A DNA stretch of 63,837 nucleotides, filler included, from Reclinomonas americana ATCC 50394 (lineage: Eukaryota), in the NCBI GenBank assembly GCA_048213135.1. It is 10 parts of 10 records of this genome, joined end to end, with 100 filler letters (N's around TTAATTAATTAA, not from the genome) between each part and the next. Parts side by side here need not be neighbours in the genome. Positions count along the whole stretch, not along the records: positions 14,538 to 24,534 come from PS016006.1; 9 more parts are not named here. The stretch is one strand, 5' to 3'. Below the pieces are notes generated by a model, which saw only the letters and a list, made by a program, of their open reading frames with translations, did not search any database and was not told where the DNA came from. The first letter of the stretch is position 1, and each line of letters starts with the position of its first letter. A program made the position numbers and the translations under genes. Of this stretch, positions 16,661 to 19,600 are shown one piece after another.

Positions 16661-19600
16661 ATGAGCGCCGCAGCTGCTATTGATGAGAGCCTGTGTCCAG
16701 TGTGTCGCGTGCTTCTGCCCACTGACGCACTCCCTGTGCACCTGGAAACGTGTCTGGAGTCGTTGCCAGAGGTGTGCAACGAATGAGACTGTCAATCATC
16801 GGGACAACTCACACGAGCGCACACACACATGCCCAGACACGTCGTGTGAGTGCTGCAGCGCCCACCATAGGCTTCTGTGACAAATGTGCCACTCGTGGCG
16901 ACATCTTCAACCTGTCGGCGAGTGCCACACACAACACAAAGTCACTCTCTCCTTTGCGCTCATTTGTCTCCGCGCGCAGAACTGCCTTCACATGCTGTGC
17001 AGCCCGTGCTTTGGTGAGATGGCCTACAACTGTGTGCGCTCAGGCAAGTACGAGGCGCGTTGTCCACTTGCCTCATGTCGGCGACCAATCGAGGCCGATG
17101 CGTTTCGCGATGGTCTCTCGCGACGAGATTTCGTCATGTATTCGGCCTCGCGCATCCGTGCTGAACGAGTTGAGTGGGCGACTGGGAGAAGCGCGTACGC
17201 ACTGGAGCTGTCTGAGGGGATAGGGAATACTCAAGTGGATTTGCAGGGTCTTGGTGTGCCGGATGAGGCGCTGCGGGTGACTTGTCCGTCGTGTCATGCG
17301 GCATTCCAGCGCGCAGCCTTGGCTCGCCGATACGCTGGTGCGGGCGATATGAAGGCGGTGAGTGACAGTGATGAGTTGCCACCGCCACCGCGGCCGTTGC
17401 CGTCGACGAGCATCATTGCGCGAGCGGAGCGGGGAGGGCGTGCCAAAGTTGTGGGGCTGTCGTCGGTGAATCCGCTCACTGGCAAGAAGCGCGAGGGCCC
17501 TGTGCCGTCTCGTGCACCTCCCTCACGACAGCCGTCTGCCACCTCTAGTCGCGGTCGTGGTGGTGGCAAGGTTGGTCGCGGTGGTGGATCCTCCTCGTCT
17601 GCATCCGCAGCAGCGGCGGCGCCAGCACCAGTGGCGGTGGCGTCGGCGGAAGAGTTTTGTCGAGAGGAGCACCGGCTGCAGTGTCCGTCGTGCTCCACCT
17701 ACTTTTGCGACGCCTGCCACGCTCTTCCCTATCACGACGGATTCACGTGCGCGAGAGTTGCGCGGTTGCGTGCGTGGCGCTAGAGTTGATGAAGTTTTCT
17801 GACCGACGCCTGTCGGTGGCAGTGGGAGATCAGGCGAAATGCTCGACCGTGTCGCTTCTGCGGTGTTCTTCTCGACGAGACCAACACGTGCAAGGAGCCG
17901 CGACACAAGAACGCGCTGCTGCAAGTGGAGACGGCACTGCGTCGACTGTTGGTGATGGAGCACGGCCATGGAGGTGTGGTTGCATTAGGTGCAGCCCTCC
18001 TTTTCGTGTACTCACCAACTTTCCCCGCTGGCAGACTGGGCGGAGATTGTCTCCATTCCTCCAGCCTTGCAGTATTGTTGCACGGAGGCGGCATGCTTGG
18101 AGCGCCGCGAGTTGTCTTGTGATCGGACGCTGGAATGTGGCCATGCGTGTTGTGGTACACGCGATGAAGTCGAGTGCCTGCCGTGTCTGCAGTGTGCTGA
18201 TGCCGATGGCAACAAGGTAGTGTCACTGATCGCATGCCTTGTCTGGTTCTCTTTCGCTGACGCCACAGAGCAGAGGGCCGAAGACGACTGCAACATTTGT
18301 CTGGCTGAGCCCCTGGGTGCAGCTCCGTGCTTCCGCAATGTGGCGTGCGGGCATATTTTCCACTTTCAGGTGCTTCCGCTTTGCATGCTCTCTTCCGGCT
18401 GCCATTTCTCACTCGCACTCTCATTCTCTCTCTCTCGTGCGCGCAGTGTCTGCAGAAGCGTCTGGAGATGCGCCACACGACAGCACGCATCCATTTCAAG
18501 TACCTCGAGTGTCCGCTCTGCAATGCACCGCTGCACCACATTGAGTTGGTGCGCCTCCTGCATCCCATCTACGACTTCAAGTCGCGCGTGGAGGTGAGTG
18601 CTCGCAATGAATTTCAGTGGACTCGCTTTGCTCGCCTCACTTGTCGATCGATGATGCAGACTCTCGCATTCCGTTCCATCATGCACGAGGCCGGGCACGA
18701 TCGAGAAGTGGCAGCCATGACGGACGACAAGCCCGCAGCCGAAGTCACTGAGTTGGCCATGCGCACGCTCTCGTTCTTCCAGTGTCATCGTTGTCGTGAA
18801 CCATACTTTGGTGGGCGCGTCGTGTGTGGCGAGAATGCAGACTTTGATCCGAACCTCCTCGTGTTGCGTTCACTGCATCACCAATGATGTATGCTCTTGA
18901 ATCGTCGAACTTACCTCCAGGTGTAGGTGCCCGGCTTGTGTCGCGGCGATGCAGAATACGGGCTTCCGCTCCGGAGTCATGTGTGCCGTACACGGCGGTG
19001 ACTATATGTTGCGTGAGAACACCACCACCGTGCTGGTTATTGTGTTCCGCCCAACTGACCGTCGTTTTCACAGATCGGTGCGGCCTGTGGCTCCCACCGT
19101 CATCGCTTCTGTGCTCATTATCCGTTCTGCAGTGGAAGTGCCGATTCTGTTGCAACTTTGCTGTGTGGTTCTGCTTTGGGGTGAGAGCTGTCGTTGGTAT
19201 CACGGGTGGGTGAAGAATTGTTTGCTGACTTCATTTTGCGCAACTTGCTCTCCCTTGCCAAGACGGTGAGTGACCTGTGTTAAGTTGCATCTGTGCTGCT
19301 CTTTCCCACTCACCTACTTGTGTGTGCTGGTGTGCAGACGGTGTGTTTCTGTGTTTCTCTCGTGCTGTTGTGTTGTTGCCACTCACCTCTTTTCCCGATC
19401 GCCCCTCGCGTCCATTTGAACTACGCAGCAGTGAGTCTCTCGCGCGTGCGTCGCAGCTCTTTCTGTCCTCCGCCAGTGCGCTCACGCTCTTGTTGACCCT
19501 CTGCGCAGCATGTGCGACAAGTGTCACTCGTCAAGCGCGTGGGTCAAGACGTCGTGGAAGCAGTGCACACCGGAAACGTGCAAGCTGAAAATGGCGCACC

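Follow-up and report, generated by a model that had tools for sequence, protein, structure and literature searches.

Four candidate microexons of 4, 3, 3 and 2 nucleotides in the tandem-cysteine domain of a predicted RING-Cys-Relay ubiquitin ligase gene of Reclinomonas americana

The window analysed here is a stretch of 63,837 nucleotides (nt; filler included) from Reclinomonas americana ATCC 50394 (assembly GCA_048213135.1), composed of 10 parts of 10 records joined end to end. The part taken from record PS016006.1 (window positions 14,538 to 24,534) carries an intact, intron-rich gene for a predicted RING-Cys-Relay (RCR) E3 ubiquitin ligase of the MYCBP2 type, and it is the 3' part of this gene that concerns us. 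There, six short and ordinary-looking introns cut the tandem-cysteine domain and would leave exons of 4, 3, 3 and 2 nt, each intron being recognised singly, a reading to which we assign a probability of roughly 0.78. Comparative and statistical analyses of the genomic sequence lend good support to its core, the inclusion of four microexons in the predicted message.

The gene lies on the + strand and extends from an ATG at 16661 to a TAA ending at 19913, with three forward frames joined at canonical splice sites. Its 16 exons are separated by 15 introns of 46-88 nt (14 GT-AG and one GC-AG, 16918-16979), all of which can be removed from the coding sequence without a stop or a frameshift. The spliced coding sequence measures 2,235 nt or 2,241 nt, depending on whether the acceptor of intron 8 is placed at 18926 or at 18920, has no internal stop, and predicts a protein of ~744 residues (~744 codons). 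A CTNAY motif is present in each of the 15 introns, 7-44 nt from the 3' end. The window as a whole is eukaryotic and intron-rich, with a G+C content of ~0.55-0.62 outside its masked parts. The gene and the features around the microexons are:

16661..19913, + strand: whole gene, 16 exons and 15 introns; ~744 residues, the C-terminal half made up of a RING and a tandem-cysteine domain (RCR)
18660..18862, + strand: exon 8, start of the tandem-cysteine domain, with the upstream relay cysteine (GG-x3-C)
18927..19007, + strand: exon 9, ending ...HGGDY and bases 1-2 of the following codon; start alternatively at 18921
19008..19073, + strand: intron 9, 66 nt, GTTGCG...CAG, with CTGAC 15 nt before the 3' end
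19074..19077, + strand: microexon 1, ATCG, 4 nt, in the context AG|ATCG|GTGCGG; finishes an Ile codon and adds Ser
19078..19132, + strand: intron 10, 55 nt, GTGCGG...CAG
19133..19180, + strand: exon 11, 48 nt, W-K-C-R-F-C-C ... F-C-F-G, with the downstream relay cysteine
19181..19262, + strand: intron 11, 82 nt, GTGAGA...AAG
19263..19265, + strand: microexon 2, ACG (Thr), in the context AG|ACG|GTGAGT
19266..19337, + strand: intron 12, 72 nt, GTGAGT...CAG
19338..19340, + strand: microexon 3, ACG (Thr, T in 10 of 10 homologs), in the context AG|ACG|GTGTGT
19341..19428, + strand: intron 13, 88 nt, GTGTGT...CAG
19429..19430, + strand: microexon 4, CA, bases 1-2 of an invariant His codon, in the context AG|CA|GTGAGT
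19431..19508, + strand: intron 14, 78 nt, GTGAGT...CAG
19509..19609, + strand: exon 15, base 3 of the His codon, then M-C-D-K-C-H ... H-P-P-N-G

These four AG|exon|GT sites were proposed in an earlier sequence-only reading together with flanking introns of 66, 55, 82, 72, 88 and 78 nt; the sequence confirms each of the sites, and the lengths and GT-AG ends of the six introns are as described there. Each candidate microexon would be an internal exon of the coding class of at most 15 nt, placed between canonical introns with signals of their own, and in each of the six introns a branch-like sequence, CTNAY, lies 15-43 nt short of the 3' end. In base make-up the six introns (T 0.33, G 0.26; 0.29 and 0.23 in the nine other introns) are unlike the exons of the gene (T 0.22, G 0.33). 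Donors of the form GTG[AT]GT follow three of the four microexons and occur at one of the 11 other donors of the gene (Fisher one-sided p 0.033, on very few introns). Ahead of the 3-, 3- and 2-nt exons the CTNAY motif is 34, 25 and 43 nt from the acceptor (again on few introns), the nearest CTNAY lying 13-25 nt from the 3' end in most other introns of the gene. The donor bias and the CTNAY distances are compatible with special handling of the microexons.

Membership of the encoded protein in the RCR family, which the same reading had proposed, is borne out by matches to structures and homologs. Exon 8 alone (68 residues) matches the MYCBP2 structures 5O6C (E 6.4e-4) and 6T7F (E 8e-4) and, in a HMMER search of 1.84 billion representative sequences, 20 proteins at E<=1e-3, with named homologs in Anaeramoeba, Capsaspora, Mastigella, Naegleria and Paulinella; the UniRef name of the Naegleria protein is 'RCR-type E3 ubiquitin transferase'. 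Those of the 20 with a complete C-terminal domain, ten in all, form the comparison set and the source of the profile used below. The homolog P0001 matches the entire MYCBP2 RING plus tandem-cysteine construct (chain residues 4-258) with E 5.6e-64, and our model matches P0001 in turn (model residues 427-683 to P0001 residues 3-250, 39.8% identity, E 5e-57). Five full-length homologs each give a single BLASTP alignment over model residues ~291-686 at 32-36% identity (E 3e-55 to 1e-72; 36% and E 1.4e-72 for P0015), and the model is therefore colinear with them across every junction in its C-terminal 400 residues.

Most of the expected parts of the module are in place in the model. The RING stands directly upstream of the tandem-cysteine domain, and the upstream relay cysteine column (after GG-x3), encoded by exon 8 and independent of the microexons, is filled in the model and in all ten homologs. 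The downstream relay cysteine of F-C-[FW]-G is supplied by exon 11 (...W-F-C-F-G), and every Cys and His position of the tandem-cysteine domain is kept. Pfam gave no match for two long open frames of the gene, and Rfam none in the window. From the matches to structures and homologs the gene is predicted to encode an RCR-type E3 ubiquitin ligase. The upstream relay cysteine of MYCBP2, which sits in the loop that follows Y-[FY]-G-G, is named C4520 in the literature. The module is described as passing ubiquitin from the E2 to a first cysteine and on to a second cysteine in the zinc-binding tandem-cysteine domain, ending in Thr/Ser esterification (PMC9527308, PMC9120709), with a Cys-His-Glu triad at the second site (PMC9527308).

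Splicing in all four microexons gives the segment expected of the family. The resulting 32-residue peptide is identical to MYCBP2 (6T7F chain A) at 20 of 32 positions by our own count and, as had been claimed, aligns without a gap; the MYCBP2 stretch quoted in that claim agrees letter for letter with residues 173-204 of that chain. From H-G to the final C-x2-C-H the model aligns without a gap to seven of the ten homologs; each of the remaining three has one extra residue inserted after C-C. T-H after FC[FW]G-x is present in all ten. The H-G-x6-K-C and G-x-T-H-x-C-x2-C-H spacings, which comprise zinc ligands and the catalytic His, appear in the predicted mRNA only if all four microexons are included. 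A metagenome scan added four RCR-family loci at 36-45% identity; in the three distant loci that span the segment the His is present in 3/3 and the Thr in 2/3, and no introns occur there. One metagenome homolog (L003:870-2213) forms a single continuous alignment with many in-frame stops at conserved positions, which suggests that stop codons are reassigned in its host, as they are in ciliates.

That frame and motif both depend on the microexons, another part of the earlier proposal, holds when the other splice paths are enumerated. At the second site, from exon 11 to exon 15 (19181-19508), we listed all chains of at most four GT-AG introns, each intron being 40-400 nt long. There are 22,840 of them; 1,146 keep the frame without a stop, and a single one, the 3+3+2-nt chain, gives FC[FW]G-x-T-H-x-C-x2-C-H; with GC donors allowed there are 181,452 chains, 7,822 of them in frame, and again one with the family motif. 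No other canonical splice path restores both frame and motif. Scored with the ten-homolog profile, the 3+3+2-nt chain ranks first of 2,264 (143.4 bits). At the first site the 4-nt exon ranks first of 106 in-frame chains (143.4 bits), the next scoring 137.3 bits. Solutions with a single intron at the second site were also considered: just two are in frame, and both delete W-F-C-F-G including the relay cysteine.

The four sites exceed chance expectation. When the donor pattern and a CTNAY motif are demanded for each of the four introns of the second site, none of 3,000 dinucleotide shuffles of 19181-19508 passes and the real sequence does. Both strands of the whole window were also scanned for the signature of a microexon (AG, 1-9 nt, a donor-like hexamer, and an intron-like stretch on both sides), which returned 19 combinations of position and length; four of these are the sites described here, all within 360 nt. 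Another scan candidate, at 27286-27283 on the minus strand, lies inside an exon of an AAA-ATPase gene and is false.

How such exons might be joined is suggested by the size of the introns. Each intron would be recognised singly, by intron definition, its donor serving together with a CTNAY branch site and a YAG that lies 46-88 nt further on, a mode that we infer from intron sizes only. Because donor, branch site and acceptor of introns this short can pair across the intron, the 2-4-nt exons would never need to be recognised as exons. An acceptor only 2-4 nt from the next donor makes joint occupation of the two sites unlikely, so that sequential removal is probable, with the introns excised stepwise and each microexon joined to a neighbour that is already ligated. 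The mature mRNA would then carry Ile-Ser between HGGDY and WKC, and Thr-Thr plus two bases of the His codon between the FCFG relay cysteine and C-x2-C-H. We consider it reasonably probable, with less confidence than for the main reading as a whole, that the back-to-back 3-, 3- and 2-nt exons and the 4-nt exon 100 nt upstream are spliced constitutively, placing six introns within ~20 active-site codons. If so, the spliceosome would have no practical lower limit of exon size when short introns are recognised singly, even with acceptor and donor 2-4 nt apart; an ordered, resplicing-like removal of introns would be implied; and intron gain would be locally concentrated in the conserved zinc-knuckle, a pattern that gene predictors would systematically overlook in such lineages.

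Several observations weigh against the four-microexon interpretation. It carries a selection effect, the site having originally been chosen because it fitted. Close relatives were not found: the HMMER matches of exon 8 among the 1.84 billion representatives are all at <=63% identity, and a word-based protein search with exon 8 (68 residues, longer proteins only) and exon 3 (259 residues) gave no match. The neighbouring tryptophanyl-tRNA synthetase (TrpRS) gene has no microexon and no missing residues at its three visible junctions compared with jakobid TrpRS, so microexons are not a feature of every gene here; that near-minimal exons are spliced as a habit of the lineage, as had been proposed, is a hypothesis resting on one gene. 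The model also carries a Leu, three residues ahead of the C-x2-C found after the mediator loop, in a column occupied by Glu in MYCBP2 and by E/D (9/10) or Q (1/10) in the homologs, and with an acidic residue thus replaced, full catalytic equivalence to MYCBP2 is not assured. We take this Glu to be the acidic member of the MYCBP2 catalytic triad, whose residues are presumably C4572, H4583 and E4534; the downstream relay cysteine would be C4572, with which the chain index agrees if, as we assume, 5O6C starts at residue 4378. Finally, competing in-frame paths score close behind: a 5-nt exon at 19338-19342 (T-T-V, 138.6 bits) is the runner-up at the second site, a 13-nt exon at 19074-19086 reaches 136.3 bits at the first, skipping one ACG keeps the frame at 135.1 bits, and bare GT/AG chains inserting NNN-ACN-CA arise in 28 of 3,000 and 22 of 3,000 dinucleotide shuffles of 19181-19508 (~0.7-0.9%).

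The competing paths raise the possibility that the gene is real and its main mRNA spliced otherwise, using the 13-nt exon, the 5-nt exon or a form with one or both ACG exons skipped, so that the four-microexon form would be minor or absent. All of these choices are canonical GT-AG, in frame and stop-free and fall only 5-8 bits lower in the profile, and very short exons are frequently skipped in other organisms (PMC13149111). They would, however, either alter spacing that is fixed in 10/10 homologs and MYCBP2 or lose the invariant His, and the ACG-skipping forms would require introns of 157-328 nt, compared with 46-88 nt for the 15 modelled introns; we regard this alternative as unlikely. The same evidence leaves the earlier suggestion that the two ACG exons could be skipped to tune the active-site loop unsupported, because the G-x-T-H spacing is invariant in every homolog seen (10/10 homologs, MYCBP2 and 3/3 metagenome loci) and dropping one ACG costs the score difference given above. 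The shuffle counts, together with 185 of 3,000 shuffles yielding a 4-nt chain at the first site and with the Leu in place of the triad-like acidic residue, could instead point to a decaying or non-functional copy in which a motivated reader has strung together chance AG...GT pairs. This is very improbable given that the gene is otherwise intact (its coding sequence of 2.2 kb has neither stop nor frameshift after nine further ordinary introns are removed), that the six stretches are intron-like in length, composition, donor and branch motif, that the chance chains vanish once intron signals are demanded, and that the Cys and His residues of the domain are all kept. Least probable of all is that the coding bases originate elsewhere, by way of a non-canonical event or through misassembly. 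By eye, an 8-mer at 19378-19385 would read Ala-Thr-His (two of three bases) and satisfy G-x-T-H, and the assembly of the window contains 24 runs of N. As a single contiguous exon this 8-mer was rejected, having neither an AG before it nor a GT after it; it is part of an ACTCACC branch-like motif common to other introns, AC-N-CA is expected about once by chance per 328 nt (by arithmetic), and no run of N falls within 16661-19913.

Compared with known ultra-short exons, the four-microexon arrangement is extreme in number and spacing. In plants, 2,398 coding exons of 1-15 nt are reported, 1-nt exons there carry strong donors, and in rice a transcript in which a 5-nt exon adjoins a 12-nt exon has been confirmed by reverse-transcription PCR (PMC8831610). 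A 1-nt exon is described in Arabidopsis (PMC4674806) and another in CYP621A of Fusarium (PMC12940212), those of Arabidopsis APC11 and of VPS55 being among the known plant cases (PMC8831610, PMC4674806). The present candidates would share with these constitutive plant and fungal exons a coding nature, a length of 1-15 nt, canonical introns, GTRAGT-like donors, a need for the exon to maintain frame and a conserved motif, and escape from annotation; the GTG[AT]GT donors after three of the four fit the strong donors of the plant 1-nt exons (PMC8831610). They differ in that four lie in one domain and three are consecutive (3, 3 and 2 nt, 8 nt in total), and in that the plant and fungal microexons are supported by RNA whereas the present ones are predicted from genomic DNA. 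Single genes with successive very small exons are also known: human RPS24, with consecutive microexons of 3, 18 and 22 bp (PMC12207440), and the micro-exon genes of Schistosoma, with exons of 3-81 bp (PMC10526429). These animal microexons undergo alternative splicing or are flanked by long introns, and their products are variable tails or secreted peptides; the present introns measure 55-88 nt, and the exons would specify invariant residues adjoining an active-site cysteine. No three consecutive exons adding up to 8 nt were found in the open-access literature searched, and the present run would, if spliced as predicted, be shorter than any other found there; further adjacent cases may be listed in the supplementary tables of PMC8831610, to which that search did not extend. 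The back-to-back 3+3+2-nt run is an extreme form of already known ultra-short exons and not a new kind.

At the level of the protein, the predicted ligase shares with MYCBP2 and its PHR relatives (5O6C, 6T7F) and with protist RCR-type proteins (for example Naegleria D2UXL3 and Capsaspora CAOG_00584) the RING, the zinc-binding tandem-cysteine domain, both relay cysteines and the C-x2-C-H end. It differs from MYCBP2 in size (~744 residues as against ~4,600) and in the extra Cys-rich modules of its N-terminal half, a trait of protist RCR members. The gene would add a compact, free-standing protist ligase to a family best known through the giant MYCBP2 of animals, free-standing protist RCR ligases being a little-studied gene family. 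Were transcripts to confirm the predicted junctions, the locus would offer a natural test of the minimum distance from an acceptor to the next donor with both sites used, and would reveal whether introns around exons of near-zero length need a fixed order of removal. The gene also carries a warning for annotation, as a predictor with a minimum exon size would call a conserved enzyme broken or model it wrongly; no protein matching the gene was present in the protein collections searched, which is consistent with such a miss and is not proof of it.

Further features of the gene were noted. Intron 2 (16918-16979) is apparently GC-AG with the donor GCGAGT, no GT donor giving the correct phase to join the exon that ends ...N-L-S to the one that begins N-C-L-H. 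Two acceptors 6 nt apart (CAG, then TAG) stand in tandem at the 3' end of intron 8, at 18919-18926; the upstream one would add two residues (C-R) ahead of C-P-A-C, and the ten-homolog profile favours the downstream one, giving 150.4 bits for a start of exon 9 at 18927 and 143.4 bits for one at 18921. An unusual GTTGCG donor is found at three of the 15 introns (17757, 18863 and 19008). By eye, exon 1 (16661-16771) encodes a C-x2-C ... H-x3-C arrangement resembling a UBZ-type ubiquitin-binding zinc finger, before the first RING-like module. In the long exon 3, positions 17352-17366 (AAGGCG|GTGAGTGAC) equal the junction of microexon 2 and intron 12 at 14 of 15 bases, with in-frame acceptors 72-213 nt downstream, and may be a cryptic donor or an exitron. 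The GTGAGT at 17358 was considered as an intron donor and was not taken as one because the stretch downstream has exon-like composition (G 0.36-0.39, T 0.17-0.18).

A motif, CACTCACCT, occurs 37 times in the window with at most one mismatch, against 21.4 occurrences expected, and none of 100 shuffles reaches 37; examples are at 19307-19315, 19380-19388 and 18010-18016. It is the reverse complement of the donor consensus AG|GTGAGTG, and on the coding strand it lies within introns at branch-site distance. Among the 15 introns no significant mutual similarity was found (best z 3.7 over 105 pairs), an ACTCACC-like motif alone being common to them. An origin of the introns from introner copies or tandem duplication was considered and is unsupported, because the introns are not alike; direct-repeat families are short.

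Elsewhere in the window, the TrpRS gene, of the cytoplasmic type, occupies 20021-22231 on the minus strand, with its middle masked by N (20980-21971) and three ordinary introns visible. Its best named match is from the jakobid Seculamonas (61-78% per exon), with Willaertia and kinetoplastids near the top and animals and plants scoring almost equally. The AAA+ ATPase gene lies on the minus strand at 26950-27650 and has short introns; its Walker A sequence is G-P-P-G-C-S-K-T, and by eye it is CDC48/NVL-like. Two open frames on the + strand, 2179-3957 and 5095-6393 (together spanning 2179-6393), match the Na+/H+ exchanger family (PF00999), and several of the masked or gapped runs of N in the window are pairs of 44 N with 12 bases between. 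Four long open frames with ankyrin repeats lie on the minus strand at 47421-60051.

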